DNA of 64,000 nucleotides from an uncultured Pseudomonadota bacterium (lineage in GTDB: Bacteria > UBA10199 > JADFYH01): assembly GCA_964384365.1 (NCBI GenBank), contig CAYLKF010000007.1, positions 10,732 to 74,731 of the forward strand. The letters are read 5' to 3'. Made by a program: the position numbers and the translations under genes. How positions within the stretch are numbered: position 1 is the first letter of the stretch; each line of letters opens with the position of its first letter. Below are positions 2,359 through 61,097 of this stretch, one piece after another. The notes beneath the pieces are model-generated. The model saw nothing but the letters and a program-made list of their open reading frames with translations, did no database searches and was not told where the DNA came from.

Positions 2359-2363
2359 TTTGC

Positions 2364-2494
2364 AAATGGGTCAGCATTTTCTCCGTTCGCGAAAAACGTG
2401 CCGTAAGGAAAGTTTTAAAATTTTTCAAAGAGTCTATTTTTTTAAAATCGATGGTTCGGCACTTTTCCCTCACTTCAAAAACGCCGACCCATTT
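2364..2494 (-). repeat. Family-1 structured repeat, copy A (131 bp)
   Basis: 17-bp arms 2364-2380 and 2478-2494 (2 G.U on minus strand). Inner stem GTGCCG/CGGCAC; conserved CCGAA and CCTTACGG. Confidence 0.85.
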
Positions 2495-3425
2495 ACGATT
2501 TTTTCCAGATCCATTTCTCTACTCCACTCATCCCCACATAGATCAACGCAATCGAGATGAGGCTTGCGCCCGTAGGAAACGAAAAGAGAAAAGAAAAGAA
2601 ATAGCCAAAGGCAGGCAGTAAAGTGCCAATCAGTGCGGAAACTAAAAAAGCATCTCGAAAAGATTGGGTTTGTTTGAGCGCGATGAAGGGGGGAATTACC
2701 ATTAAAGCAAAAACAGGCAGACTTCCTAAAATTTTGAGAGAAACCGTAATGGCTACCGTGAGGGTGAAGTAGAGAAAAATCATCCAGCTCTTTGCCGATA
2801 AACCGCGAATTTTCATGAAATCAGAATCGGCGGAAACAAAGATAAATTCACGCCGAAAGAAAAAATGAATCAAGAGAAGCGGAACGCAAAATGCCAAAAT
2901 TAAATGGGCGTCTTGAGGAGTTACTGCAACGGCATCGCCGAAGAGTAGAGTATCGATATTATGGCGCCCTTCAGAAATTCGATCTCCTATCATAATAATC
3001 AAGCCCGAAGCGGCGATATAAATGAGTCCCATCAAACTTTCGTCGGGGTATTCACTCCGTTTTCTGAATTTTGCAAAGAGCAGTGCTGTGAGGGCGGCAA
3101 GTAAAAAACCTGCAAGCAAAGGAATTGAAGATTCATTCGAGTGGAGCCCTAAGAGATCAAAGGCTAAAAAACAGAGAAAAATCCCCAGAGAAGCGCCTTG
3201 TGAAAGCGAAAGCGTTACAAACACAATTCGATTCAGAAGAATATAAACTCCCAAAATCGAAAGCGTGAGTCCGCAAAGAGCCCCCCCGAGGATGGGGTCT
3301 TTCCAAAGCGAGTAAGCCTCTAGAAAACGAGAAGACTCCTCGGGTTTTAAAGCAATCATTCCCCCAAAGAGCAGAAGGCTTACGAAACTATAAAAAATGA
3401 ATCTCGAAACGGTGGTTTTTTTCAT
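2493..3425 (-). CDS. znuB: Metal (Zn/Mn) ABC transporter permease, ZnuB-like
   Basis: ABC-3 family motifs (LLNRIVFV..SLSQGASLG, LLFGD); multiple TM helices; operon context. Confidence 0.85.
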   Translation of the reverse strand: MKKTTVSRFIFYSFVSLLLFGGMIALKPEESSRFLEAYSLWKDPILGGALCGLTLSILGVYILLNRIVFVTLSLSQGASLGIFLCFLAFDLLGLHSNESSIPLLAGFLLAALTALLFAKFRKRSEYPDESLMGLIYIAASGLIIMIGDRISEGRHNIDTLLFGDAVAVTPQDAHLILAFCVPLLLIHFFFRREFIFVSADSDFMKIRGLSAKSWMIFLYFTLTVAITVSLKILGSLPVFALMVIPPFIALKQTQSFRDAFLVSALIGTLLPAFGYFFSFLFSFPTGASLISIALIYVGMSGVEKWIWKKS

Positions 3426-4128
3426 GCACGTGTACGGTTTCGCCGTATGCCTCCGATAAGGTTTTTTCGTTTAAGATTTCTTCGACAGGCCCGCAAAAAA
3501 AATTATTTTCGCCCAGTAAGCAAAGCCAGTTCACTTGATTGATGATTCGATTCAAATCGTGATCGATCACCATCCACGAGAAGTGCTCGTTTTGATAAGT
3601 TTGAAGAATTTCCCAAATTTTTTCACGAAATTGATGATCGAGAGAATTGTGAGGTTCATCCATAATTAAAACGTTGGGCTGATCGATTAAGGCTCGCGCA
3701 ATGAGTGTGCGTTGACGTTGGCCCCCAGAGAGTTCTCGCAAGAGTTTTTTGCGCAAGGGCAGAAGATCGAGATTTTTTAAAACTTTTTCAGCCTTGCTTT
3801 CAAAATCAGAACTTGAAAATTTCCAGCGCGAACGCAAAGGCATGAGGCCCATTGTTAAAACATCGTCGACGGTGAGAGGAAATAAGCGATCGATGTGTTG
3901 CTCTTGAGGCACATAGCCAAAGCGGGTTTGCGCAGCCCAGGTGTAAGAACCCGAAAGGGTGGGGATGAGCCCCAAGATGGTTTTCACAAAGGTTGATTTT
4001 CCCGAACCGTTTCCACCAATGATTCCAACACGGGCGCCCTGTGGAATGGCAAAGGAGAGGGGTTTGAAGAGATTAACACCCAGATACCCCATCTTTAGGT
4101 TTTTGGCTTCGAGCAACACTTGTTTCAT
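3388..4128 (-). CDS. znuC: Metal ABC transporter ATP-binding protein, ZnuC-like
   Basis: Walker [31 protein letters not shown]-loop. ATG at 4128 preferred because the longer ORF runs into repeat copy E. Confidence 0.88.
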   Translation of the reverse strand: MKQVLLEAKNLKMGYLGVNLFKPLSFAIPQGARVGIIGGNGSGKSTFVKTILGLIPTLSGSYTWAAQTRFGYVPQEQHIDRLFPLTVDDVLTMGLMPLRSRWKFSSSDFESKAEKVLKNLDLLPLRKKLLRELSGGQRQRTLIARALIDQPNVLIMDEPHNSLDHQFREKIWEILQTYQNEHFSWMVIDHDLNRIINQVNWLCLLGENNFFCGPVEEILNEKTLSEAYGETVHVHEKNHRFEIHFL

Positions 4129-4139
4129 AAAATCTTCTG

Positions 4140-4287
4140 TAGCGGGCCAGTGAGTTCTTACAGTCGCAAAAAAACTCGCCGTAAGGAACAAAAACTAGCA
4201 ATCGATTTTGGAAATTGCCTTATTTCAATTGAAATAGCCCTCGCGGCTCGGCAGTTTTCACTCATTCCAGAACTCGCTAGCTCGCTA
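4140..4287 (-). repeat. Family-1 structured repeat, copy E (148 bp)
   Basis: 19-bp arms 4140-4158 and 4269-4287. Inner stem AAAACT-GCCG/CGGC-G-AGTTTT; CCTTACGG conserved. Overlaps the last codons of znuA. Confidence 0.75.
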
Positions 4288-5194
4288 CAACTTTCTTTAT
4301 CTCATCGATTAAATGATCGATCAAATCAAAATAGGTTTTAATTCCGCTCTCTCCTGTGTCGGTTGGAAGATCGAGCATAGGAATTCCACTTTTTTCCGAA
4401 AGATATTGAGGAATTTTTTTAGGGTAAAAATTTTCAACGAGAATGGCTTTTACTTTATAGTTGGGAAGCATTTTTAAGATTTCATCAACCCGTCCGGAGC
4501 TGGGCGGAATTCCTGGTTTTGCTTCGATGGCCGCCACGATGTTTAGCCCAGTCCAATTCGTGAAATAACTGAGTGAGCGGTGATAGGTAACCACGTCTTT
4601 GCCTTTGAAGGCAGCAATTTCTTTTTCCCAGGTTTTCATTTTTTCGTTGATGCGGTTCAAGAAATTTTGGAACCGAGCCTCATAGTAGGATTTTCCTTCA
4701 GGGTCAACCTGGGCCAAGTGTTGATAAATATTCGCAACCATCAACTTTGCATTCCGAGGGTCGAGCCAAATATGGGGGTTTCCCAAAGGGTGCACGTCGC
4801 CCATCGAGCGGTCGACTAAAGTCTTGGGAACTTCTAAGACTTGAATTCCTTGAGAAAGGTTCACGTTGCCCGGAGCGCCTACCATGATTTTTCCATTTCC
4901 GGATTGATTCACAACGGGTGGCAGCCAGCCCGTTTCTAACTGTAATCCGCCGTGTAAAAGCAGATCGGCTTTATTGAGTGCGACCGCAAACATCGGTTTG
5001 GCATCTAGAAAATGAGGATCTTGATTGCCTCGGGCGAGCGAAGTAACGCTAACGCGTTCTCCTCCAATTTCTTCTGCCAAGCTTCCGAACACTGGCAAGG
5101 TGGCGACGATATTCACCTTAGCTTGAAGGGTAGAAACAGGAAACACGCCGCAAGAGGCAAGAAGGGAAAATAAAAAGAATAAAGTTTTTTTCAT
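4277..5194 (-). CDS. znuA: Metal ABC transporter substrate-binding protein (ZnuA/TroA family)
   Basis: Signal peptide; metal ligands in DPHF, DVHPLGNPHIWLDP, VTYH, IEAKPGIPP. Confidence 0.9.
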   Translation of the reverse strand: MKKTLFFLFSLLASCGVFPVSTLQAKVNIVATLPVFGSLAEEIGGERVSVTSLARGNQDPHFLDAKPMFAVALNKADLLLHGGLQLETGWLPPVVNQSGNGKIMVGAPGNVNLSQGIQVLEVPKTLVDRSMGDVHPLGNPHIWLDPRNAKLMVANIYQHLAQVDPEGKSYYEARFQNFLNRINEKMKTWEKEIAAFKGKDVVTYHRSLSYFTNWTGLNIVAAIEAKPGIPPSSGRVDEILKMLPNYKVKAILVENFYPKKIPQYLSEKSGIPMLDLPTDTGESGIKTYFDLIDHLIDEIKKVVAS

Positions 5195-5313: not shown

Positions 5314-6693
5314 TTAAAACAAATGCGCTCCATGGGCACCTAAGCTAAACATGAGTTGTAAAATGACCGCACTCGCCCAATCTTCTCCGGTTAATTTATC
5401 GGCTTCATATTGGAGTCGAATTTGAGAATATTCTGTCGGATTAAAGGCGATTGCGGGTGTCAGCCGAGTTTCGCGCGTTTGTAATCCTACCGGCAAGCCC
5501 ATTTGGTCCCAGCGAAAGGCCGCGTGCCAACGCTTGTAGAATTGCCAATCGAGATAACTGTAAAGTCCACCATCGGTCATGGTTTGGGTAAGATCTTCAG
5601 CGCTCACTTGCATGTTTCGTCCGATGTACTCGGTTTGCCAAGAAAGGCTTGTGTGGGCAGAGGGTTTCCATCTTAAGAGAAAATCTCCGCCGTAGAGCGC
5701 GGTATAATTTCCGGGGGCTGTTGCGTTGTAGCCCCAGGCGAAAGATCCACCCAATAGAAGAGTAAGCGTATTGGTTAGATCGGTGCTGGCGCTTAAGCGT
5801 CCGTTATAGAGAAAATCTTTCTTTTGAGTGCCACCGAAGCTGTTTGAATTATCACCATTGGTGACGGTGCTTTGAAACTGTAAGAAAAACGGAGTAGGAA
5901 AAAGATACGACATTTGCAATCCTACTTCGCCGAGCCCATCAGCCCCCAGCAGATATTTGTTGGCAAGATTATTATCGGCAAAAGTCCAGGCATGAAGATG
6001 TTTAGGGTTTTGGCGTCCAAAGGGAAGCAGCATAATTCCACCTTTAAACTGCAAGCCTTTAGGCAGACCACTCTGGGTGGTGAAATAGGCTTCTTCAATT
6101 TCCACACCCTCTTGGGCAAAACTTAAGAAAGCATCGTAGCGAAAATAAGGATCCACCGCGCCCTGAAAGGCGACTTCGAGCTCCTGAAAAGTAAAACCTG
6201 TACTGGCAGGATCTATGCCCACAGAGCCTGTGTTATCGCCTAGAGGGTCACGTTCAAAATAGGAGCCTGCGAAAGCACCAGTTACGCTAATGTCGGGCAA
6301 AATTTTTGCAGCAGCACTATTACCTGTGGGGTATTTCCAGAGACCAATCGATTTCCGGTTGGCGCCCGGCGAAGCAGGAGCATTATTCACCTGATCGAGC
6401 AGGGCTTGAGATTCTTCTTTTAGAGTTTCTGTTTTTTCACCGATCTTCGGGCTCTCTTGCTCCTCTGAAGGAGTGGGTTTGAGATCTGGCTTCGAAGAAC
6501 GAGAAGTTTTTTTGCCTTCGAGTTCTGATAGGCGTTCATTTTGTTTTTCAACAAGTTCCGTTAATTTTTTTACGCTTTCTTTGAGCTCTTGTACTTCTTG
6601 TTGAAGCGCTTTGGTATCTTGAGCAAACAAGGGTGTGCTTACTTGCAAGAAACAAAGGCATAAAAGAAAGCTTCGTTTAAAAAGCTTAGGCAT
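5314..6693 (-). CDS. Outer-membrane beta-barrel metal-uptake protein linked to the Zn ABC operon
   Basis: Signal peptide, N-terminal coiled coil, beta-strand patterning, C-terminal LGAHGAHLF; first structural gene of the znu operon. Confidence 0.7.
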   Translation of the reverse strand: MPKLFKRSFLLCLCFLQVSTPLFAQDTKALQQEVQELKESVKKLTELVEKQNERLSELEGKKTSRSSKPDLKPTPSEEQESPKIGEKTETLKEESQALLDQVNNAPASPGANRKSIGLWKYPTGNSAAAKILPDISVTGAFAGSYFERDPLGDNTGSVGIDPASTGFTFQELEVAFQGAVDPYFRYDAFLSFAQEGVEIEEAYFTTQSGLPKGLQFKGGIMLLPFGRQNPKHLHAWTFADNNLANKYLLGADGLGEVGLQMSYLFPTPFFLQFQSTVTNGDNSNSFGGTQKKDFLYNGRLSASTDLTNTLTLLLGGSFAWGYNATAPGNYTALYGGDFLLRWKPSAHTSLSWQTEYIGRNMQVSAEDLTQTMTDGGLYSYLDWQFYKRWHAAFRWDQMGLPVGLQTRETRLTPAIAFNPTEYSQIRLQYEADKLTGEDWASAVILQLMFSLGAHGAHLF

Positions 6694-6741
6694 AAATTCC
6701 CCCCTTAATGACTTAAATGATTAAAAACGAGAAAAGCTCAT

Positions 6742-7029
6742 TTAAGAAAAAAGAGGCGGGCCACGGATGAGAAAAGTAAAAGAAGGGGATGCGAGAAATC
6801 TTGTTGTAACAGAAGGGCAAGATTTTTGAGCAAAAGTAAAAGGCGGATTTAAATAATCAGTTTTGGGGGAGTTGAGTTTTGAAAAATGGTGAGAGATCTG
6901 ACAAAGCGAGCAATGCGAGGTTTCTGTGGGAGCTTCTTTATGAGAGTGGCTGAAGCTTAATATCGGCAAAAGCAGGATAGACGCGAAAATCCAGTAACTA
7001 ACCCATTTTTTAAGAATAAACCGTCGCAT
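6742..7029 (-). CDS. Small upstream ORF, DUF2946/CruR-like candidate arrest peptide
   Basis: N-terminal TM helix, HSHSH, HCSLC, C-terminal IRGPPLFS; 48 nt upstream of the OM metal-uptake gene. Confidence 0.7.
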   Translation of the reverse strand: MRRFILKKWVSYWIFASILLLPILSFSHSHKEAPTETSHCSLCQISHHFSKLNSPKTDYLNPPFTFAQKSCPSVTTRFLASPSFTFLIRGPPLFS

Positions 7030-7142
7030 GCGTGCTGATTACCTAAAATTAAGATTTTTTGTCAATCGTCTTAAAGGCCAGCGTTTCTTCTAATCGTGTC
7101 CTCCAGAGGCAGATAGGAAAAAACTCGCCTTTACAGAATTTT

Positions 7143-7619
7143 TTAAAAATGGGGAAATAAAGTCCAAATTTTTAAGGCTAAAAGGAGTCTCAGAGTGAGA
7201 TTGGCGTAAATTCCTGCCGCCAAATCATCGCATACTACCCCTAAACCCCCCGAAAGATTTTTTTCGCACCAATTTGCAGGAAAAGGTTTAAAAATATCGA
7301 AAAGACGAAAACAAACAAACCCCGCGATCACCGTTTTGAAATCAAAGGGAAGGGCAAACATTGTGAGAAGATAACCTGCAATTTCATCGATCACGATTTT
7401 TTCAGAATCTTCTTTTTGAAAATATTGTTCGGCGAGGTTTGAACACCAAACTGCAAGAAAGCAAAAGCCAACAAGAAAACAGAGATTTGAGTAAAAGGGT
7501 AAACCCTTTGTAGCCCAATAAAGCAAAACAGCGACGGCCGTACCATAAGTGCCTTGGGGGCCTGGAAGAAATCCAACACCCGCTCCGGTTGCCAAAAAGA
7601 GGGCAAATTTTTTAACCAT
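7143..7619 (-). CDS. pgpA: Phosphatidylglycerophosphatase A
   Basis: ATGAGVGFLPGPQGTYGT, KIVIDEIAG, FRLFDIFKPFP, GVVCDDLAAG. Confidence 0.92.
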   Translation of the reverse strand: MVKKFALFLATGAGVGFLPGPQGTYGTAVAVLLYWATKGLPFYSNLCFLVGFCFLAVWCSNLAEQYFQKEDSEKIVIDEIAGYLLTMFALPFDFKTVIAGFVCFRLFDIFKPFPANWCEKNLSGGLGVVCDDLAAGIYANLTLRLLLALKIWTLFPHF

Positions 7620-7738
7620 AAGATTATATTTCGTTGACTAGAATTTGAATTTTCTTTCTAATACACCTCTTTTATTGCAAGAGATAGCAGATCTTCGTTT
7701 ATGTAAAAGATTTCTTATTCTTTATCAAAGGAGTTTTT

Positions 7739-13443: not shown

Positions 13444-14433
13444 TCAACGACTCTTGAAGAGAAAAGCAAGGATTCCCATTAAGATGATCATGCCCAGCCC
13501 CACCAAAGAAGCTTCGGCAAAATTTAAGCCAAATCCAATCGAAGCAGCGAAGGCGGCCAAGGCAAGTAAGATATACCAAAAATTCACACGTTGAATTTCA
13601 TCACGTTGGAGAAAGGGGGCAAAGACTTCTCCATCCCTTTTTTGATACGGAAGAAGGTATTCTTGGGGCATTCCCCCCCGTTTTTTTAGATAAGCCAAAA
13701 GTTTGCGAGATGATTTTTTTAGGCCTTCTCGATCTAAGATTTTGAGGGCGGCTAAAAAATGATCGATTTCTCCCTTAGGATTCATTTCCGCTTGGATGAG
13801 CTCAAGAAAGGCCAGGCCGGGTTTCTTGAAGCCTAAGTCTTCAAGTTCTGTTTTGGCCTTGATTTGAGGATTCATTGATTCATGAGCTTTGCCGTCGAGT
13901 TTTAAAGATTCTTGCAGATTATTAGAGGCGCCTACTCCTTGAAAATTGAGATTTTTTTGCACCGCTTGTTGAAATTGTTGCCAGAGCATTCCCCCTTGCA
14001 TGGCTTTTAGGCTCAAAACGACTTGGGTGATGGGTAAGCGCTGCTCGTTTACTAAATAACCGGCTTCTCGAATAAATTCGCGAATAATTTGAATATCGCG
14101 TTTTAACTCCTGAACCATTTTCTGATTCATTTCTCTAAAAAGTGGATTTTGGGCATCAGGTTCGGAGTCGGCCTGTTGGGGGTGATAGGCCTCCTGATAG
14201 ATTTGGTCCATAACCCCTACGAAATCTTGAGACAATTCCAGGGGAGAGCTTGTTGGAAGCATGTTGGTGGCAGTTGTTGAATTTGCTTCTTGCATACGAG
14301 CCGCAACTTCTTTTGCCATAGCTTCTCGTTTTTGTATTTCGGTTTGCGAGTTTTGTTGACTTCGGGTGCTATGATCTGGACCAGGTGGGTCGGTTGGATG
14401 TGGATTGGGCCGTACGGTGAAATCGGGATTCAT
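13444..14433 (-). CDS. Hypothetical protein with C-terminal TM hairpin
   Basis: 329-aa ORF filling the gap; Pro-rich N-terminus, two C-terminal hydrophobic helices; no family recognised. Confidence 0.65.
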   Translation of the reverse strand: MNPDFTVRPNPHPTDPPGPDHSTRSQQNSQTEIQKREAMAKEVAARMQEANSTTATNMLPTSSPLELSQDFVGVMDQIYQEAYHPQQADSEPDAQNPLFREMNQKMVQELKRDIQIIREFIREAGYLVNEQRLPITQVVLSLKAMQGGMLWQQFQQAVQKNLNFQGVGASNNLQESLKLDGKAHESMNPQIKAKTELEDLGFKKPGLAFLELIQAEMNPKGEIDHFLAALKILDREGLKKSSRKLLAYLKKRGGMPQEYLLPYQKRDGEVFAPFLQRDEIQRVNFWYILLALAAFAASIGFGLNFAEASLVGLGMIILMGILAFLFKSR

Positions 14434-14981: not shown

Positions 14982-15017
14982 AAAGCCCCTTCGTTTTAAA
15001 ACGAAGGGGCTTTTTTT
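14982..15017 (+). terminator. Intrinsic terminator (likely bidirectional)
   Basis: AAAGCCCCTTCGTTT/AAACGAAGGGGCTTT followed by T7. Confidence 0.9.
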
Positions 15018-15021
15018 ATGC

Positions 15022-15822
15022 CTAATTTTCAATTTGAATTGAAAAAGAATCGAACAGATGTTCGACAAAGTGCTCAAAAACTTCACTATTCTTTTCAACG
15101 CTGATTTCTCTCACTATGCTTTCGGGGAGTTCTTCTAAACTCGCAAAATCAATTCCATGAAACCAATCATTCACATCGATTTCGATTTTTAAATGATGAG
15201 CCTCTCCATTGAGAGTGAGATTTTGCATTAAGCGAATTTTTTCACCCAAATTTCCTTGAATTAAAAAAGAATACAAACGTCCCGATTCCAGATGCAACGC
15301 TGAACCGCGAAGCAAGAGAGAATGAGAAATTTCTGAAGGAAGAAACAGCGTTTCTGCTGTTCGAATTGTTTCCGGAAACTCCAGTTCTAAACCTTGATAA
15401 TTTCCAACGGGCATTTGAATGCACGGGAGAGCAGTATTTTGTAAAAGATTGAGATAGATAAATTTATTGAGGCTGTTTTGATAATCGCAAGAGCTGGAGT
15501 GGGCATGTTCGTCGGAATTCGAATCGTCTTCTGATTCTTCTTCGTGTTCGTGGCCTTCGTGCTGGGCCTGAAGGGTTTGTGCGGAGATTCCGATAAAGTT
15601 CAGTTTTCCAAAAATAAGTCCTGCCTGATCGAGGTGAATTCGGTAGCCCGCAGTTTCAAAATCTTGGCGTGTCGCAGGGATTTGAATTTGAGCCAAGAGA
15701 CGAGTGGGGGGATTAGTTGAGGTATCTGTGTTTTGATTCTGATTCAGCAAAGAATTGCCACTGCAAGAGGAGAATGTGGTTCCTAAAAAAAATAAAATTA
15801 AAATTGTTCTGATAAATTTCAT
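15022..15822 (-). CDS. His/acidic-rich lipoprotein, putative metal-binding
   Basis: Lipobox FSSC; QHEGHEHEEESEDDSNSDEHAHSSSC tract. Confidence 0.65.
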   Translation of the reverse strand: MKFIRTILILFFLGTTFSSCSGNSLLNQNQNTDTSTNPPTRLLAQIQIPATRQDFETAGYRIHLDQAGLIFGKLNFIGISAQTLQAQHEGHEHEEESEDDSNSDEHAHSSSCDYQNSLNKFIYLNLLQNTALPCIQMPVGNYQGLELEFPETIRTAETLFLPSEISHSLLLRGSALHLESGRLYSFLIQGNLGEKIRLMQNLTLNGEAHHLKIEIDVNDWFHGIDFASLEELPESIVREISVEKNSEVFEHFVEHLFDSFSIQIEN

Positions 15823-15838
15823 AAAATTCCTTTTTAAA

Positions 15839-16690
15839 TTAAAAAGCGTAAGTGGTGTTAAATAAAAACCCCGCTTTTACATCGGTGAGTAAAAGAGGAG
15901 AGAGCGGCGATAAAATAACTCCGGATTTTAGTTGCAGCGTATCGATCACCGAAACGCGTGCACCCAAGCTCGTGGAGAGCTTGGGGCTTAGTTGCCAGAA
16001 AAGTGCTGGATTCAAAAAAGCCTTGGTCGAACCTGTGTTGAGGTTTTCGCTCGAGAGAGCGGTAGAGCCTTGAAGAGCCAGCAAAAGCTTGAGAGGAGCC
16101 TTTCCCCCAACAATTGGAACAGTAATTCCTGTTGAAAAATCGAGGCTCGGAGCGGGTTGATCGGAGGCCAAAACCGAAGTTCCGAGCGTGATGAAACTAT
16201 CGAGCTGATGAAACCACTGCGCAGAATAGGTGAGATAGGGCGAAAAAATTACATTACCTGCCCCATAACCTTCGTCTTTTTTTCCGCTTGGAAAAGAAAC
16301 GACTTGTCCAAAAGTAAGGCCCATGCGGTTTGGCTCTTGCTGACTCCACAATAAAGATTTTAGGGTAAAAGCCACGTCGCCCAAGCCAGAACCCTGCGGA
16401 AGAAAATCTTGGCGAAGCGTTGCAAAGGGTAGGCGTGCCCCCACGCTTACACGCGGATGCACGACGTATTCCCCTGAAAGTTGATATTTCGCAACACTGC
16501 CTAGGTGATCATCGAGTTCATCAATACTGATATCGAGAGCAATATAAGTTTTGGGAGGCCGCGATTCAGTGGAGAAAGGATTAAAAAGCGCGAATCCTCC
16601 GCCGCCATGAGCGTTCGTGTGATGGGCAAAGGTCGAGTTTGATAATAGAAAAACCCAAATAAAGCCGATGCCGATTAAAAAATATTTCAT
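15839..16690 (-). CDS. Putative outer-membrane beta-barrel transporter with N-terminal His motif
   Basis: Signal peptide then AHHTNAHGGG; GSGLGDVAF; amphipathic strands; terminal Phe. ATG 16690 preferred over TTG 16708. Confidence 0.65.
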   Translation of the reverse strand: MKYFLIGIGFIWVFLLSNSTFAHHTNAHGGGGFALFNPFSTESRPPKTYIALDISIDELDDHLGSVAKYQLSGEYVVHPRVSVGARLPFATLRQDFLPQGSGLGDVAFTLKSLLWSQQEPNRMGLTFGQVVSFPSGKKDEGYGAGNVIFSPYLTYSAQWFHQLDSFITLGTSVLASDQPAPSLDFSTGITVPIVGGKAPLKLLLALQGSTALSSENLNTGSTKAFLNPALFWQLSPKLSTSLGARVSVIDTLQLKSGVILSPLSPLLLTDVKAGFLFNTTYAF

Positions 16691-16715
16691 AAGTAGCCTT
16701 TCTTGCAAAGTGTTT

Positions 16716-16851
16716 GCAATGAGGCAGCATCCTTTCGTTCAGACAAAACGCGCCGCAAGGTATGCGCGGGGTGGCGGCATAGAAGGCTGTGCGATTCTAC
16801 AATGGATAGGTTCGGCGCTTTGTCTTCACTGCAGGATACTTCCTTGATTGC
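16716..16851 (-). repeat. Family-1 structured repeat, copy D (136 bp)
   Basis: Arms AGTATCCT/AGGATGCT plus GCAAT/ATTGC. Inner stem AGACAAA-GCGCCG/CGGCGC-GT-TTTGTCT; CCTTGCGG. Confidence 0.8.
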
Positions 16852-16866
16852 GCTAAGGTGAAAAAA

Positions 16867-17220
16867 TTAAGAAAGGCGAGGCGGCTTTTCAGGAGGGCTG
16901 GAATAGTAAGAAGAAATGAAAAAAGAATCGGTTTTGAGAGAAGTGAGTTCGGCTTGAAAAATCGGAAAACTGAAAAAGCTGGGTAAAAAAGAATCGGTTT
17001 TTAAACTTAAAATCTCTTCGTGTGATTTTTGATGGGGCTTTGGATTTTCTTTTAAGCTTTCTTGGAGGGCATGGCCGCAAATTAAAATGGAGCTTTTTGG
17101 ATTTGAGGAGATGTCGGGATTTTTAGAAAAATTTAAGACAGCACTTAAGCTAAAACCCTGGCCTAAGCTGATCAGCGCAAAGAAGAAAACTACCCAAAAT
17201 TTTTGCCGGAAAAATTTCAC
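16867..17220 (-). CDS. Small upstream ORF, candidate arrest peptide ending SPPEKPPRLS
   Basis: N-terminal TM helix, internal SLKTDSF repeat, C-terminal PP motif; GTG 17220 (or TTG 17232). Confidence 0.6.
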   Translation of the reverse strand: MKFFRQKFWVVFFFALISLGQGFSLSAVLNFSKNPDISSNPKSSILICGHALQESLKENPKPHQKSHEEILSLKTDSFLPSFFSFPIFQAELTSLKTDSFFISSYYSSPPEKPPRLS

Positions 17221-17259
17221 GACGCTTTTCAATAATAAAATGGAGATCTTGTCAATCGA

Positions 17260-17772
17260 TCAGTCTTTTGCAGATTCAGACTCTTGTAATTTTGAATATT
17301 CTTCGAATTCTTTAGTGATATCGATTGTTTCTTCGGGAGGATTTTCATCATCAAAAGTGGAATCTTGAGATTCTTGAATATAGTAAAAAGAGGTGGTTTC
17401 TTCGGAGATTTCCTTTTTTTCAGGCTCCTTGGTGTTTTGCATCATCCATAATATTCCGAGTTGCTGAAGAAGGGCGTTGGCCAGAAAGGGCATGCGTTCC
17501 TTGAGTAAATGGAATCCAAAAAAAGAGGGGTGAAAATTTTCATCAAAAAGCTGTGCCGGTTCGGCGTGAGAATAATGGGGCGCCACTTTTCCAAAAGCCT
17601 CTGCATGAATGTTTGAATGAGTAGGGGCCAGAGCATGCGAATAAGAAAGCGAGCTCGCGCGGTATTGCGATTCAAGAGAACTTGTTTGAGCTTTTGGGAG
17701 TGTTTTGGGTAGTTCAGGTTCAGCAGGGCTCACTAAGCTGTGAATGGGATGAATCGGGTTCAGTGGCGACAT
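17260..17772 (-). CDS. Hypothetical protein
   Basis: 170-aa ORF with Pro/Ser/His-rich N-terminus and acidic C-terminus; SD-like GGAG upstream. Confidence 0.55.
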   Translation of the reverse strand: MSPLNPIHPIHSLVSPAEPELPKTLPKAQTSSLESQYRASSLSYSHALAPTHSNIHAEAFGKVAPHYSHAEPAQLFDENFHPSFFGFHLLKERMPFLANALLQQLGILWMMQNTKEPEKKEISEETTSFYYIQESQDSTFDDENPPEETIDITKEFEEYSKLQESESAKD

Positions 17773-17880: not shown

Positions 17881-19365
17881 CTAGCGGCGTCGAGTGGAAG
17901 GGCGCAGTATAAGGTTCGAGCTAAAGTGCCAGGGGCTATGAAGGCGAGCAAGTAAACTTTGATTAGGATAAAACCGAAGCAGCAGGGCCTGGTTTATTTC
18001 AGAAGCGCCTACCTGTTGATAAGAAGAAAGAATCAAAGAAAGACTCAGTCTCTCGAGGTGAAATCCATCGGTGTCGAATAGTTCGTCCCAAATGGTTTTG
18101 CGTGCCTGACGATGGGGGCTTAAAGGAGACGTAGAAGGCGATAGTTGACTCAGTATATGCTCCGAAAATAGATCGGCAAACCATTCTTCAAAACTGTCAA
18201 AACAATGGCGAGTGTTGTCTGAAAATAGGCTTTCTCCACTGAGGGCCGGGAAAATATTGCTTGCCTCTACGTAGGGCTGCTGAGCCAAAAATCGGCTTTC
18301 AATGGCGCCTCGCCACGCTTCGAGAATAGATCTCGTTTCGTTTCTTGTAAAACGCCTGAGTACCATGTGCCCGAACTCATGAAAAAAATGGTGATCGAAG
18401 TCTGTGAAATGATAATATTCGGTAGTTTGAAGTTGTAAAAACTGAGAAAAGATAATTCGATTAGGAATGGGAAGGGTTTCACCGGCTACAAAAGAAGGAA
18501 TCTGACAGCGATCGACCCTATCGGAACTGGGTTCTTCTCTTTCGTCAAAGATTAGGCTGAAATCGGGTGTTCCGCCGCCAGGACTTAATAAAAATAAAAG
18601 CTGAGTGGGAGTGAGAAAAACTTTCAATCGATTAAAATAATCTACCAAACGAAAACGAATATTTTCCCAATGGGCCTCATGCGCAGGGCTTAAATAAACC
18701 GGTATACGATAAGGAATTCCCTCGATTTCGACTTCATGGAGAGTGAGTGAAAGATGTGCAGGGCATGCCTGAAAAGTGAGAGAAACCGGAGCGCGATCTG
18801 GAAAACTAGCGAGCTGTGCTCCATAGCCTTGAGCGCGGAGCTGAGCCTGAAAAGCCTGATCACTCGAAACGGGTAAAAGATTTCTATAAAATTCGATCAT
18901 TCCTAAAAGATATTGAATATCGCCTTGAGAGAGCTGGGCTAACATCGCTTGTTCGCTAGCGCTCGGAGAAAAATCTCCTGATGCATAGCCGATGTTTTGG
19001 GTGGGAGCGGCGCTTCGTTGAAGCAAACCTTCTAAAGTTTGACGAAACAAAAGAATGTGTCGCTCGTAGCTCGTACGATCCCAATGATGGGTGGCTGCGC
19101 TTTCGCTGTATCGAAACAGATCTGCCGAAAGAGGGCGCCCTGCTGAAGAAATCGGGTTGCCGGCCTGAAAGGGTATTTGAGCTTGAGAAAAACATTCAGC
19201 AAGAGGAGTGTCTCTTAAACTGCAGCTTTGTGCTGTTCCAAATGCTCGATGATCGGAGGGGGAAAGGGTATGGGTGAAGAGAGGAGGTAGGTGAACAAAG
19301 CTGGTGCCGATATATCCATCGGTTTCAAACAAATATTGGGTGCGTCTGGCGATTAAGGGATCCAC
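17881..19365 (-). CDS. Hypothetical zincin-like metallopeptidase
   Basis: HExxH in FFHEFGHMV plus downstream EEWFADLF; SD AAGGAG upstream; no signal peptide. Confidence 0.6.
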   Translation of the reverse strand: MDPLIARRTQYLFETDGYIGTSFVHLPPLFTHTLSPSDHRAFGTAQSCSLRDTPLAECFSQAQIPFQAGNPISSAGRPLSADLFRYSESAATHHWDRTSYERHILLFRQTLEGLLQRSAAPTQNIGYASGDFSPSASEQAMLAQLSQGDIQYLLGMIEFYRNLLPVSSDQAFQAQLRAQGYGAQLASFPDRAPVSLTFQACPAHLSLTLHEVEIEGIPYRIPVYLSPAHEAHWENIRFRLVDYFNRLKVFLTPTQLLFLLSPGGGTPDFSLIFDEREEPSSDRVDRCQIPSFVAGETLPIPNRIIFSQFLQLQTTEYYHFTDFDHHFFHEFGHMVLRRFTRNETRSILEAWRGAIESRFLAQQPYVEASNIFPALSGESLFSDNTRHCFDSFEEWFADLFSEHILSQLSPSTSPLSPHRQARKTIWDELFDTDGFHLERLSLSLILSSYQQVGASEINQALLLRFYPNQSLLARLHSPWHFSSNLILRPSTRRR

Positions 19366-32533: not shown

Positions 32534-32673
32534 GAGTATCCGGTCTGCATTTCCTCAGTTCAGACAAAACTGCACCGCAAGGAAAAAATGCTCTGGATTC
32601 GAAAGTCTAATATTTTTAAGAGTCGATAAGTTCGGTGCTTTGTCTTCACTTCAAAAATACAGACCGGATACTC
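32534..32673 (-). repeat. Family-1 structured repeat, copy C (140 bp)
   Basis: 19-bp arms GAGTATCCGGTCTG(C/T)ATTT (1 G.U on minus strand). Inner stem AGACAAA-GCACCG/CGGTGC-AGT-TTTGTCT. Confidence 0.85.
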
Positions 32674-48226: not shown

Positions 48227-48241
48227 ATAAAACTATGAAGG

Positions 48242-48372
48242 TAAAGGTCAACATTTTCTCAGTTCGCAAAAAACGCGCCGCAAGGAATAGTTTAACGTAC
48301 TTTTGAAAAAAATATGATTTTTAAAATCGATAATTCGGCACTTTTCGCCTACTTCAAAAATGCCGACCTTTA
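48242..48372 (-). repeat. Family-1 structured repeat, copy B (131 bp)
   Basis: 16-bp arms TAAAGGTC(GG/AA)CATTTT (2 G.U on minus strand). Inner stem GCGAAAA-GTGCCG/CGGCGC-G-TTTTTTGC. Confidence 0.85.
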
Positions 48373-48395
48373 GCTCTAAGTTAGGATTGTACTGT

Positions 48396-57866: not shown

Positions 57867-57958
57867 GCCTTTTTCACCTCACTTTATTTTTTCATTGAAG
57901 CTTATCCCAGTATCCAGTTAATGTGTTCATTCTGTAGTTTTATTGAAATATTGAAATT

Positions 57959-58032
57959 CGGGGAGTAACTCAGCCCGGTAGAGTGCCAGCTTTGGGAGCT
58001 GGAGGTCGCAGGTTCAACTCCTGTCTCCCCGA
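57959..58032 (+). tRNA. tRNA-Pro (TGG)
   Basis: Acceptor CGGGGAG/CTCCCCG, anticodon arm CCAGC-TTTGGGA-GCTGG, T-arm GGTTCAACTCC. Confidence 0.96.
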
Positions 58033-58036
58033 TTTT

Positions 58037-58124: not shown

Positions 58125-58177
58125 TGCCAGCTTTGGGAGCTGGAGGTCGCAGGTTCAACTCCTGTCTCCCCGATTTT
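58125..58177 (+). repeat. 53-bp exact direct repeat of the tRNA-Pro 3' portion
   Basis: Identical to 57984-58036 (TGCCAGCTTTGGGAGC...CCCCGATTTT). Confidence 0.92.
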
Positions 58178-58185
58178 TTTAATAA

Positions 58186-60059: not shown

Positions 60060-60320
60060 ATGAAAAAAATGAGTTTATTTTTTTGGGTTCTTTTTTTAAT
60101 TGGAATTTCGCCTGCGAGAGCCGATTATATTTGGGATGATAAAGCCGCTATTCAGAATGATCAAAAAAATATTCAGCAAGACTCTCAGAAATTAGAAGCA
60201 GATCAGAAAAATAATGCAGGGTCTGCCACGATTCAACAAGATCAAAAACAGTTAGAACAAGATCAGAAACAATTAAAGCAAGATCAGAGGATTTTAAGGG
60301 AAGATAAGCCTCCCATGTGA
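60060..60320 (+). CDS. Small secreted Q/D/K-rich repeat protein
   Basis: SD GGAGG, signal peptide, repeated QQD/xQDQK heptads; GTG 60039 is an alternative start. Confidence 0.7.
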   Translation: MKKMSLFFWVLFLIGISPARADYIWDDKAAIQNDQKNIQQDSQKLEADQKNNAGSATIQQDQKQLEQDQKQLKQDQRILREDKPPM

Positions 60321-60328
60321 GAACTCTC

Positions 60329-60946
60329 ATGAAAATAAAAATCCTTTTTCTTTTATTGCTTTTGAATTTTGTATTGAACTCAGGAGCGTTTGCTATGGGA
60401 GAACAGACACAAGCTGTTCATACTGCCTCAGCCACCTTTGCGGGGGGCTGTTTTTGGTGCATGGAACCCCCTTTTGAAAAATTAAAAGGGGTGATTAAAG
60501 TTATTTCGGGCTATACCGGAGGAAGTAAAGAGAATCCAAGTTATGAAGAAGTGTCTTCCGGCAAAACAGGGCATATCGAGGCCATTCAGATTATTTATGA
60601 TCCAAGCCAATTAAACTACTCTCAGCTTTTAGAAGTTTTTTGGCAAAATGTTGATCCGACCGATGATGGTGGGCAGTTTGTAGATCGGGGTTCTCAATAT
60701 AAAACCGCCATTTTTTATCATAACGAAGAGCAAAAAAATTTAGCAGAAGAATCTAAAAAACAATTAGAAGCTTCGGGCCGCTTTAAAAAGCCTATTGTTA
60801 CCGAGATTCGTGCATTTCAAAAGTTTTATCCGGCCGAAGATTATCACCAGGATTATTACAAAAAGAATACTTTGCATTATAAAATGTATCGCTATGGTTC
60901 TGGGCGCGATCAGTTTTTAGAGAAGAATTGGAAAGGTAATAAGTAA
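60329..60946 (+). CDS. msrA: Exported peptide methionine sulfoxide reductase A
   Basis: Signal peptide; FAGGCFWCME, GHIEA, FYPAEDYHQDYY. Confidence 0.96.
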   Translation: MKIKILFLLLLLNFVLNSGAFAMGEQTQAVHTASATFAGGCFWCMEPPFEKLKGVIKVISGYTGGSKENPSYEEVSSGKTGHIEAIQIIYDPSQLNYSQLLEVFWQNVDPTDDGGQFVDRGSQYKTAIFYHNEEQKNLAEESKKQLEASGRFKKPIVTEIRAFQKFYPAEDYHQDYYKKNTLHYKMYRYGSGRDQFLEKNWKGNK

Positions 60947-60950
60947 CAGA

Positions 60951-61086
60951 GTGACTGGGGAGTGTTTCTGAATGAGAGAAAAAGCACCGAATTTATCGAT
61001 AATTTAATTTAACGAACTTTCTATTTTTCTAAAAGCGCTCCCTTACGGTGCGTTTTTTCGCGAAAGAAGAAATGCTCATCAGTCAC
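60951..61086 (+). repeat. Family-1 structured repeat, copy F (136 bp, opposite orientation to the other five)
   Basis: 19-bp arms GTGACTGGGGAGTGTTTCT/AGAAATGCTCATCAGTCAC (3 G.U on + strand). Inner stem AAAAA-GCACCG/CGGTGC-G-TTTTT. Confidence 0.85.
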
Positions 61087-61097
61087 AAAGGACGATT

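Follow-up and report, generated by a model that had tools for sequence, protein, structure and literature searches.

A small open reading frame ending in Pro-Pro as a candidate nascent-chain leader of an outer-membrane channel and lipoprotein operon in an uncultured bacterium

What is the role of a small open reading frame (ORF) that heads an operon for two envelope proteins, begins with an apparent export signal and stops three codons after a pair of prolines? The question arises in a 64,000-nucleotide stretch of DNA from an uncultured Pseudomonadota bacterium (contig CAYLKF010000007.1; the whole stretch is referred to as the window), in which an ORF of 117 codons precedes the genes for an outer-membrane (OM) protein and a lipoprotein. 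The original prediction had taken it for an upstream ORF (uORF) encoding an arrest peptide with a variant proline motif (KPP instead of RGPP), paralogous to a second uORF that heads the zinc-uptake genes of the window and possibly coupled to the folding of a large hairpin behind it. Our analysis favors, with a probability of roughly 60%, a related reading: by analogy with known systems, the small ORF would be a cis-acting, co-translationally exported leader of the CutF/CruR type, and a ribosome dwelling at P113-P114 would unmask the ribosome-binding site of the OM gene. The general anatomy of an arrest-peptide switch thus held up, since the apparent export signal, the Cys/His region, the Pro-Pro near the stop and the downstream structure are arranged as in CutF and CruR; the proposed motif, the paralogy and the role assigned to the hairpin did not.

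The small ORF, the hairpin, the OM gene and the lipoprotein gene were all recovered on the minus strand where they had been placed, and the small ORF heads a three-gene unit whose order is kept across genomes. The features of the locus, in the order of transcription, are as follows.

17229 to 17255, minus strand: promoter-like pair read from the sequence, TTGACA (17255-17250), a 15-nt spacer and TATTGA (17234-17229).
16867 to 17220, minus strand: small ORF of 117 amino acids (aa) plus stop, with a GTG start at 17220 and no Pfam match.
17143 to 17220, minus strand: apparent export signal, codons 1-26 (MKFFRQK, then FWVVFFFALISLG, then QGFSLS), from the alignment and read by eye.
17014 to 17079, minus strand: candidate ligand region, C48-G49-H50 (17079-17071) and H63-Q-K-S-H67-E-E (17034-17014).
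16978 to 16995, minus strand: D-S-F-L-P-S, corresponding to the DPFLPS motif found in 20 of 20 members of the small-ORF family.
16876 to 16896, minus strand: C-terminal motif P109-P-E-K-P113-P114-R115, with P113 and P114 (16884-16879) as the proposed stall site.
16869 to 16877, minus strand: anti-Shine-Dalgarno (anti-SD) arm GCCUUUCUU, formed by codons R115-L116-S117 and the first base of the stop, from minimum free energy (MFE) folding and duplex analysis.
16714 to 16852, minus strand: copy of the family-1 hairpin repeat, scored at 94.6 bits by a covariance model.
16696 to 16704, minus strand: Shine-Dalgarno (SD) arm AAGAAAGGC of the OM gene, ending 5 nt before the ATG at 16690.
15839 to 16690, minus strand: gene for an OM beta-barrel of 12 strands, 283 aa, from PF13557 and an AlphaFold2 (AF2) model.
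15022 to 15822, minus strand: lipoprotein gene, 266 aa, lipobox FSSC, with no Pfam or Protein Data Bank (PDB) relative.
14982 to 15013, both strands: bidirectional intrinsic terminator, its 14-bp stem flanked by a T run on either side.

The terminator closes both this operon and the convergent HU gene. From the small-ORF stop to the OM gene there are 176 nt, almost filled by the hairpin, and the gap between the OM and lipoprotein genes is 16 nt. A longer reading of the small ORF from a TTG codon (17232..16867) would give 121 aa; the GTG at 17220 is the start chosen by gene callers and in the orthologs.

These features are not due to chance: purifying selection acts on the ORF, and other genomes keep the same gene order. 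The ratio of nonsynonymous to synonymous substitution rates (dN/dS, Nei-Gojobori) of the small ORF is 0.14 between the window and its closest relative, a syntenic contig designated L001, and 0.11 between the window and a more distant syntenic locus, L002; for comparison, it is 0.15-0.19 for the lipoprotein and 0.03-0.09 for the OM protein. Together with the orthologs and the invariance of P113 and P114, these values bear out the proposal that the ORF is translated and conserved; it is a real gene. A word-indexed search of 5.8 billion proteins returned only the window product and one relative at 83% identity, encoded on L001. The lipoprotein, searched against the same database, found only three relatives and led to the second genome (L002 to L004), in which the small ORF of L002 has 118 aa and ends in SPPEKPPRLFS. 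A profile search with the small ORF against 1.84 billion cluster representatives gave 14 matches only, and Pfam, searched at E-values up to 10, gave no match for it or for any of 16 family members; NCBIfam also gave none for the small ORF.

Further loci were found by searching with the better-conserved OM protein, and the metagenome-assembled genomes that carry them are labeled Deltaproteobacteria, Myxococcota or "uncultured Pseudomonadota". A homologous small ORF, frequently missed by gene finders, directly precedes the OM-lipoprotein pair in ten loci (L001, L002, L005/L006/L010, L007, L008, L011, L012, L013 and L015). L014 is an exception, with the OM-lipoprotein pair lacking a leader ORF and a histidine kinase and response regulator gene pair upstream (3061-4856). 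In L015, a gene for a Fur-family regulator (6696-7211) directly follows the lipoprotein gene. The two-component system of L014 and the Fur gene of L015 look like alternative regulatory solutions for the same module.

Four features of the small-ORF product are common to the 20 family sequences. The N-terminus has the form M-x-F-F/L-R-x-K/R, followed by a hydrophobic run and LISxGQ(G/A); a central Cys/His region follows; the third feature is L-S-F/L-R-x-D/E-P-F-L-P-S; and the C-terminal consensus is [DE]-x-P-P-(P)-[RK] with 2-7 residues behind it. Among 16 aligned sequences, F14, L16, G20, Q21, P60, F78, P113 and P114 are invariant. In the window product, MKFFRQK is followed by a hydrophobic run of 13 residues and then GQG, and this N-terminus reads as a signal peptide or transmembrane anchor; the run and the conserved GQG/GQA were judged by eye from the sequence and the 16-sequence alignment. 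The central region takes the form LLxCGH and P-x-P-H-Q-K-S-H-E-E in the window clade, and ECGCNxxGRKCIHGC followed by long His/Gly/Ala tracts in other members. C48-G-H50, which contains the single Cys of the window ORF (in ILICGH, with Cys-Gly-His at 17079..17071), and H63xxxH67 are candidate ligands. H67 lies 45 residues before P113 in the window, and H63 is replaced by Q in L002.

At the C-terminus, YYSSPPEKPPRLS (SSPPEKPPRLS), the stop falls three codons after P114. Conservation of the whole PPxKPP motif had been proposed as a check on the arrest peptide, and here the expectation failed: only the last Pro-Pro is invariant, and L005 and L007 lack the SPP that stands before it in the window. 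The codons of the invariant pair vary among genomes (CCG CCT, CCG CCC, CCA CCG and CCA CCU), and selection therefore acts at the amino-acid level. The hydrophobic N-terminus, the lone CGH, the tandem SLKTDSF and the position of the stop three codons past Pro-Pro are all present as the original prediction had described them.

The sharpest property of the family is a ruler. From the Phe of DPF to the last Pro there are exactly 35 residues in 20 of 20 members, in proteins whose total lengths range from 116 to 182 aa, and ungapped anchoring on the terminal Pro-Pro aligns the DPFLPS motif of all 20 perfectly. The ~26-30 residues in between are poorly conserved (2.9 bits of column entropy, against 1.2-1.8 in the flanking motifs). 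A linker of ~35 residues that is fixed in length, variable in sequence and ends at Pro-Pro matches the length of the ribosomal exit tunnel. The SLKTDSF tandem is encoded by an exact 17-nt direct repeat, AAAACCGATTCTTTTTT, at 16919-16935 and 16985-17001, 66 nt apart. It falls within the length-invariant spacer and leaves the spacer length unchanged; L001 retains only a degraded form of its second copy (IKRDSF), and L002 lacks that copy.

The same conservation could reflect a product that functions as a stable small envelope protein, membrane-anchored or periplasmic, acting as partner or chaperone of the OM channel and the lipoprotein. The proline-rich C-terminus and the fixed spacer would then be structural, and the mRNA helix that reaches the SD of the OM gene, described below, would be ordinary translational coupling. 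Purifying selection along the whole ORF, its N-terminal and central parts included, would suit such a protein, as would the strict co-occurrence with two envelope proteins and the presence, in some members of up to 182 aa, of Cys/His-rich inserts resembling genuine metal-binding domains. However, a stretch of 26-30 residues between DPFLPS and Pro-Pro that varies in sequence and never in length is unusual for a folded domain, and the invariant Pro-Pro is separated from the stop by 2-7 residues, a position that it shares with the motifs of proven arrest peptides. CutF, built to the same design, cannot be detected in vivo, and its action is confined to cis (PMC9973294). We consider it unlikely that the 117-aa product serves as a stable functional protein.

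As a leader, the small ORF is best compared with two systems. CutF, of the Rhodobacter capsulatus cutFOG operon, has a Sec signal, a CxxxC motif and 45 residues from there to a C-terminal proline motif, and a stem-loop that masks the SD of cutO is melted by the paused ribosome (PMC9973294). Its C-terminus reads P109-EPEGPPPRL-118; PPP is required, and EF-P is involved (bioRxiv 10.1101/2025.02.05.636593). The window product resembles CutF in size (117 against ~118 aa), in its apparent N-terminal Sec-type signal and in a candidate ligand motif ~45 residues before the C-terminal proline motif. The C-terminus of CutF, PEPEGPPPRL, compares with PETPPPR and DPPPPRL in the small-ORF family and PPEKPPRLS in the window. 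Both are the first gene of a three-gene envelope operon, in the window a probably metal-related one, and in both an mRNA helix masks the SD of the next gene, its 5' arm lying within reach of a ribosome at the proline motif. In contrast to CutF, the small ORF has no CxxxC; the window clade has the lone CGH and HxxxH, and other members CxC..CIHGC. The window clade also has KPP instead of PPP, and the downstream genes encode a PF13557 OM channel and a novel lipoprotein instead of a multicopper oxidase and a chaperone. DPFLPS with its exact 35-residue ruler is specific to the small-ORF family.

CutF-like proteins have been collected by Ozturk et al. 2023 (PMC9973294) as products of <150 aa with Pro-Pro in the last 15 residues, a signal peptide and a same-strand gene within <=1 kb, which gave a total of 5,334 proteins that form 29 clusters, among them some that are His-only and adjoin HupE/UreJ. 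The window ORF falls within these limits in size (117 or 121 aa), in its Pro-Pro and in the distance to its downstream gene (176 nt), and the signal peptide was judged by eye. In the orthologs, the downstream gene is 33-202 nt away, and the longest family members exceed 150 aa. The SD-masking stem-loop of CutF-like leaders is found in the window, L002, L005 and L007, and is absent in L001, L011-L013 and L015.

CruR of Bordetella pertussis (Bp2923, DUF2946) combines an export signal, a CXXC motif, 45 residues and RAPP three residues before the stop, with the 45-residue spacing kept within 1-2 residues across its family (PMC9426467). In response to copper, it regulates a TonB-dependent transporter encoded downstream, and it acts via Rho-dependent termination in a long spacer (PMC9426467); in vitro, arrest occurs with two Pro codons in the P and A sites (PMC12992588). 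The small ORF is similar in heading an OM-transporter operon, in its apparent export signal, in a candidate ligand motif whose spacing to the xxPP of the C-terminus is conserved, in a stop three residues past Pro-Pro and in a metal-acquisition gene neighborhood. It does not belong to the DUF2946/CruR family (PF11162): none of the 16 members matches the profile, and neither CXXC nor RAPP/RGPP is present. Its end is E-K-P-P, with a three-residue tail as in CruR, and the structure here is an anti-SD:SD helix across short spacers in place of Rho-dependent termination in a long one. SecM, MifM, VemP, ApdA and ApdP are likewise secreted or membrane-targeted monitoring substrates whose C-terminal arrest exposes a downstream SD. 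They differ in that they monitor Sec or YidC and precede secA, secDF or yidC, whereas RAGP, RAPP and RGPP are absent from the small ORF and its downstream genes do not encode localization machinery.

We folded the region from the small-ORF 3' end through the OM-gene start in ten loci. In four of them (window, L002, L005 and L007), the last codons and stop of the small ORF pair with the SD that precedes the OM gene. The arms and energies are listed here, with the share of background windows that reach the same strength.

Window: GCCUUUCUU (16877-16869) pairs with AAGAAAGGC (16704-16696), -13.6 kcal/mol, 1.2% of background windows as strong.
L002: anti-SD GUCUUUUUUCUUAAAUCA pairs with SD UGAUUUAAAAAAGGAC, -12.7 kcal/mol, 1.0% of background.
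L005: anti-SD UUCUCCUGAU pairs with SD AUCAGGAGAA, -15.3 kcal/mol, 0.06% of background.
L007: anti-SD UCUCCUGA pairs with SD UCAGGAGA, -13.5 kcal/mol, 0.3% of background.
L008: weak helix, -10.7 kcal/mol, 14% of background.

The arm sequences of the window and L002 differ from those of L005 and L007. The spacer between the small ORF and the OM gene measures 33-42 nt in L002, L005, L007 and L008, 87-202 nt in L011-L015, and 176 nt in both the window and L001. Because the stop falls three codons past Pro-Pro, those codons form the anti-SD arm, inside the mRNA channel of a ribosome held at Pro-Pro. When a ribosome was imposed with the first Pro codon in its P site and the nucleotides through +15 forced single-stranded, the mean accessibility of the SD increased in L002 (0.11 to 0.65), L005 (0.20 to 0.51) and the window (0.21 to 0.36). 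It hardly moved in L007 (0.34 to 0.44), and there was no rise in L008 or L001.

On these grounds, the leader could act as follows. With Pro-Pro at the peptidyl-transferase center, ~35 residues would fill the exit tunnel, and the DPFLPS/KSHEE segment would then stand at the tunnel exit or the translocon. Metal occupancy, folding or translocation of the exported region would set how long the ribosome dwells at Pro-Pro. A dwelling ribosome would cover ~15 nt downstream of its P site, which correspond to the anti-SD arm; the SD would be freed, and the OM channel would be translated, probably together with the tightly following lipoprotein. The sign of the response could be either on at metal scarcity, as for CruR, or on at excess, as for CutF. 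An acquisition system switched on under scarcity is favored because of the zinc-uptake neighbors described below.

Several observations weigh against this model. The helix is undetectable in L001, the closest relative (-3.1 kcal/mol), and in L011, L012, L013 and L015, and it is weak in L008. Even where it forms, the imposed ribosome frees the SD of the window and of L007 only in part and leaves that of L008 closed; plain termination-coupled opening therefore explains the helix equally well, and the folding data do not separate opening that depends on a stall at Pro-Pro from opening by any terminating ribosome. The KPP of the window clade is expected to be a weaker staller than PPP, and its peptide has only one Cys. 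The C-terminal motif of CutF, taken by itself, failed to arrest a LepB reporter, and motifs of this kind therefore need not stall ribosomes autonomously. The N-terminal signal was judged by eye. None of the 16 members has a DUF2946 match. Stalling and the metal response, finally, are read from sequence and from analogy with CutF and CruR.

The hairpin between the small ORF and the OM gene was the structure to which the original prediction had coupled the switch. It is real and lies where it was described (16716-16851), with an MFE of -54 kcal/mol (z = -3.1 against shuffles) and a fold spanning ~16845-16725. It measures ~135 nt, and its main stem begins at ~16845, ~22 nt past the small-ORF stop. 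From the copies in the window and the uORF-linked copy in L001, the consensus is an interrupted hairpin of 33 bp, in which 17 pairs show compensatory changes; the internal-loop sequences UGAAGUGA and GAACUGAG are conserved, and the apex is AU-rich and variable. The covariance model finds five copies in the window, not four, and three in L001, as follows.

2361 to 2496, minus strand: copy behind znuB, at the 3' end of the znu operon and facing a convergent gene.
16714 to 16852, minus strand: copy behind the small ORF.
32534 to 32672 and 48238 to 48375, minus strand, and 60950 to 61088, plus strand: further window copies, all from the covariance model.
13826 to 13969 and 20143 to 20279 of L001: copies other than the one behind its uORF.

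All eight copies are sense to a gene and start within a few tens of nt of its stop. In the window they follow znuB, the small ORF, a 209-aa ORF (60317-60946) and the genes for a TPR protein and a carbonic anhydrase; in L001, apart from the copy behind the uORF, they follow pgpA and a 328-aa gene that stands before gyrA. Not every site that is occupied in one of these two genomes is occupied in the other. The model finds zero copies in L002, L005, L007, L008 and L010-L015, and of nine stretches that matched the core pattern in a metagenome scan, none was confirmed by it. No Rfam relative was found at either the gathering or the E-value threshold, and no copy has a U tract after its outer stem. 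An intrinsic terminator was rejected as the identity of the hairpin because the U tract is absent, and an integron attC site because the flanking genes are housekeeping genes and the core sites do not fit. The family shares with REP/BIME, Correia and MITE-like repeats the ~135-nt interrupted hairpin, the multiple intergenic copies just 3' of genes and the differences in presence between close relatives. It differs from these repeats in having no sequence or Rfam match, in the sense orientation of all eight copies and in stems kept by compensatory changes. Overall, the sequence comparisons mark it as a lineage-restricted, orientation-biased interspersed repeat.

A regulated hairpin, whose folding or unfolding would depend on a ribosome stalled where the uORF ends, would account for its position between the uORF and the OM gene, for its start ~15-20 nt past the stop, for its high stability and for its retention at the same place in L001 with compensatory changes. 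However, a ribosome at Pro-Pro or at the stop does not reach the main stem (~16845), and the other copies follow genes unrelated to the switch. As the repeat is absent at the uORF-OM junction in L002, L005, L007 and L008, it is not a conserved part of the switch, and the remaining loci and the metagenome pattern matches lack it altogether. We regard a regulatory role of the hairpin as very improbable. In the window, the MFE structure keeps the anti-SD:SD helix closed around the hairpin, where the orthologs have a loop of 33-42 nt. The repeat is thus nested within the loop of the switch helix in this genome, the closest relative carries it at the same place, and at this locus the regulatory helix has survived the insertion of an interspersed repeat. 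The conserved mRNA structure, as judged from the pairing in related loci, is the short anti-SD:SD helix and not the big hairpin.

The length of some spacers raises a different possibility, modeled on CruR: arrest at Pro-Pro would shield the mRNA from Rho or from premature termination in the spacer, release would terminate transcription, and the SD helix would be secondary. CruR works in this way, and the 176 nt of the window and L001 and the 87-202 nt of L011-L015 would give room for it; one copy of the repeat also closes the znu operon, at a junction of convergent genes where one would expect a terminator. In contrast, the 33-42 nt spacers of L002, L005, L007 and L008 are too short for a Rho utilization (rut) site, the window spacer is nearly all stable hairpin and a poor Rho substrate, and the repeat has no U tract after its stem. 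Such transcriptional control therefore appears to us quite unlikely.

The -10 hexamer TATTGA ends 8 nt before the GTG at 17220, and the small ORF has no SD; since the -10 adjoins the start codon and an SD is absent, its mRNA may be leaderless. The same TTGACA/TAnnnA pair stands ahead of the zinc uORF, which also lacks an SD, with the -10 ending 5-9 nt upstream of the start codons, and the arrangement is common to the window, L001, L002, L005 and L007. This suggests leaderless transcripts for both uORF types. A consensus scanner that accepts spacers of 16-18 nt did not call the promoter with its 15-nt spacer. The promoter regions are as follows.

17221 to 17255 and 7030 to 7070 of the window, minus strand: regions ahead of the small ORF and the zinc uORF.
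8701 to 8739 of L002, 5511 to 5598 of L005 and 5470 to 5562 of L007: the corresponding regions in relatives, those of L005 and L007 with the promoters of the two uORFs back to back within ~85 nt.

A block at the promoter, ATTTTATTATTGAA, is identical between the window and the distant L005. That identity would fit another arrangement, in which the ORF is translated and the helix couples translation constitutively, but nothing is sensed and the operon is controlled at the transcriptional level alone, for instance through a Zur/Fur-type repressor acting on the promoter. The Fur-family gene behind the L015 lipoprotein gene, the two-component system in place of the uORF in L014 and the few ligand residues of the window-clade peptide point the same way. 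Inspection of the promoters by eye for a shared Zur/Fur box gave no convincing palindrome. Constitutive coupling would leave the invariant Pro-Pro, the 35-residue ruler, the export signal and the Cys/His-rich centers of most members unexplained, and we give it little credence. A riboswitch was also considered and rejected, as Rfam, scanned at the gathering threshold over the whole window and at the E-value threshold over 16500-17400, returned only two tRNAs and noise.

The zinc uORF provides a second comparison within the same genome.

6742 to 7029, minus strand: zinc uORF of 95 aa, with CXXC at 40-43, then 45 residues, RGPP at 89-92 and three further residues.

It heads the gene for a 459-aa OM barrel (5314-6693) and znuA-znuC-znuB (2493-5194), and its orthologs in L005 and L007 keep the 45-residue spacing, ending in SRAPPSLA and CRGPPAFLS, respectively. 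From its sequence, the zinc uORF is CruR-like in geometry, the same as Bordetella CruR. Its PP-L codons pair with the SD of its own OM gene, and the design is the same in L007. The claim that the small ORF is its paralog found no support: no homology between the two was detected (BLASTP E-value of 0.75, hhalign probability of 1.9%), and only the architecture is common to them. They would best be described as parallel devices.

What the leader would control also bears on the question. The OM protein scores 29.9 bits against PF13557, above the gathering cutoff of 22 bits, and its AF2 model (predicted local distance difference test score, pLDDT, 75.7) has 12 strands, with FapF (E = 7e-9), NanC and the COG4313 channel 4RL8 (E = 9e-6) as the best Foldseek matches. 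The sequence AHHTNAH, noted in the original prediction, directly follows the signal peptide and is a conserved HHxxxH: among 14 homologs H23 and H24 are invariant and H28 is conserved in at least 90%. The most conserved segment of the protein is this mature N-terminus, HHxxxH-GGG-x-FNPFSxxSRPP, in which HHxxxH is followed by FNPFSTESRPPK. The PF13557 score, the 12-strand barrel and the structural matches liken the protein to the COG4313/PF13557 channels (Pput2725, PDB 4RL8) and to FapF; it differs from the characterized members, for which hydrophobic substrates or amyloid subunits are proposed, in its N-terminal HHxxxH-GGG-FNPFSxxSRPP and its His-rich lipoprotein partner.

The lipoprotein has a lipobox Cys and QAQHEGHEHEEESEDD..DEHAH. 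Its HEGHEHEEE..HAH was likewise as described, with an H-E/A-G-x-x-H core in most of 11 homologs, which keep the lipobox, H-E/A-G-x-x-H, a Cys pair, and HH...WFHG or HPLHFH. The window lipoprotein has no Pfam or NCBIfam match, a PDB profile search returned nothing, and an AF2 model from three sequences (pLDDT 40) gave no usable fold. For MbnP (PF20243), a periplasmic copper protein, the best score was 16.7 bits against a cutoff of 27, in one ortholog, and the window protein had no match. This sub-threshold match covers the C-terminal 35 residues (196-230) of the L005 lipoprotein (6865-7665) and offers only a hint.

The gene neighborhood in the relatives is metal-related. In L005/L010 and L007, the module is divergent from a cluster of a CruR-like uORF, a 453-aa OM protein and znuA-znuC-znuB, and is followed by a rhodanese gene and HupE/UreJ_2; L007 also has a gene for a TonB-dependent receptor, and L015 has the Fur-family gene mentioned above. 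Metal responsiveness, the identity of the metal and an import function are suggested by the His motifs and by the znuABC, HupE and Fur neighbors only, and the OM-lipoprotein pair is probably a metal-related envelope module.

Outside the module, two minus-strand ORFs upstream of the operon, 17260-17772 (170 aa) and 17881-19365 (494 aa), are conserved. Their products have no Pfam or NCBIfam match; they are syntenic only in the closest genomes (L001 and L002) and lie outside the module in L005, L007 and L008. Elsewhere in the window, a tRNA-Pro(TGG) gene lies at 57958-58033 on the plus strand, and its 3' 56 nt recur at 58125-58180 on the same strand, 141 nt downstream, with 98% identity. This duplication looks like an att-type remnant of an integrating element.

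In summary, a far-reaching interpretation, which we offer tentatively and regard as doubtful, is that the small ORFs form a new family of nascent-chain metal sensors confined to uncultured lineages that resemble delta-proteobacteria or Myxococcota, with a 35-residue tunnel ruler from DPFLPS as an exit-port motif to the stalling Pro-Pro, His/Glu instead of Cys ligands in the window clade and zinc or another non-copper metal as the signal. Their stalling would turn on a new envelope uptake device of two components, a 12-strand channel whose N-terminus carries HHxxxH and a lipoprotein rich in His. If true, one genome would have an RGPP and a KPP arrest-peptide switch, independent of each other, on two OM metal routes, and the family would include the first nascent-peptide metal sensor outside copper. 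Most likely, the small-ORF family is a sequence-distinct addition to a class recognized since 2022, with a sharp ruler and a non-copper genomic context. Experiments have demonstrated metal sensing by nascent exported peptides for copper alone, with CutF and CruR (2022-2025), and the zinc-uptake neighbors make this family a candidate for extending the mechanism to another metal. Its clean signature, a 35-residue spacer and an anti-SD arm in the codons after Pro-Pro, predicts where the ribosome would stop and what would be unmasked, and the uncharacterized pair of OM channel and lipoprotein is flagged as a candidate metal-handling device.

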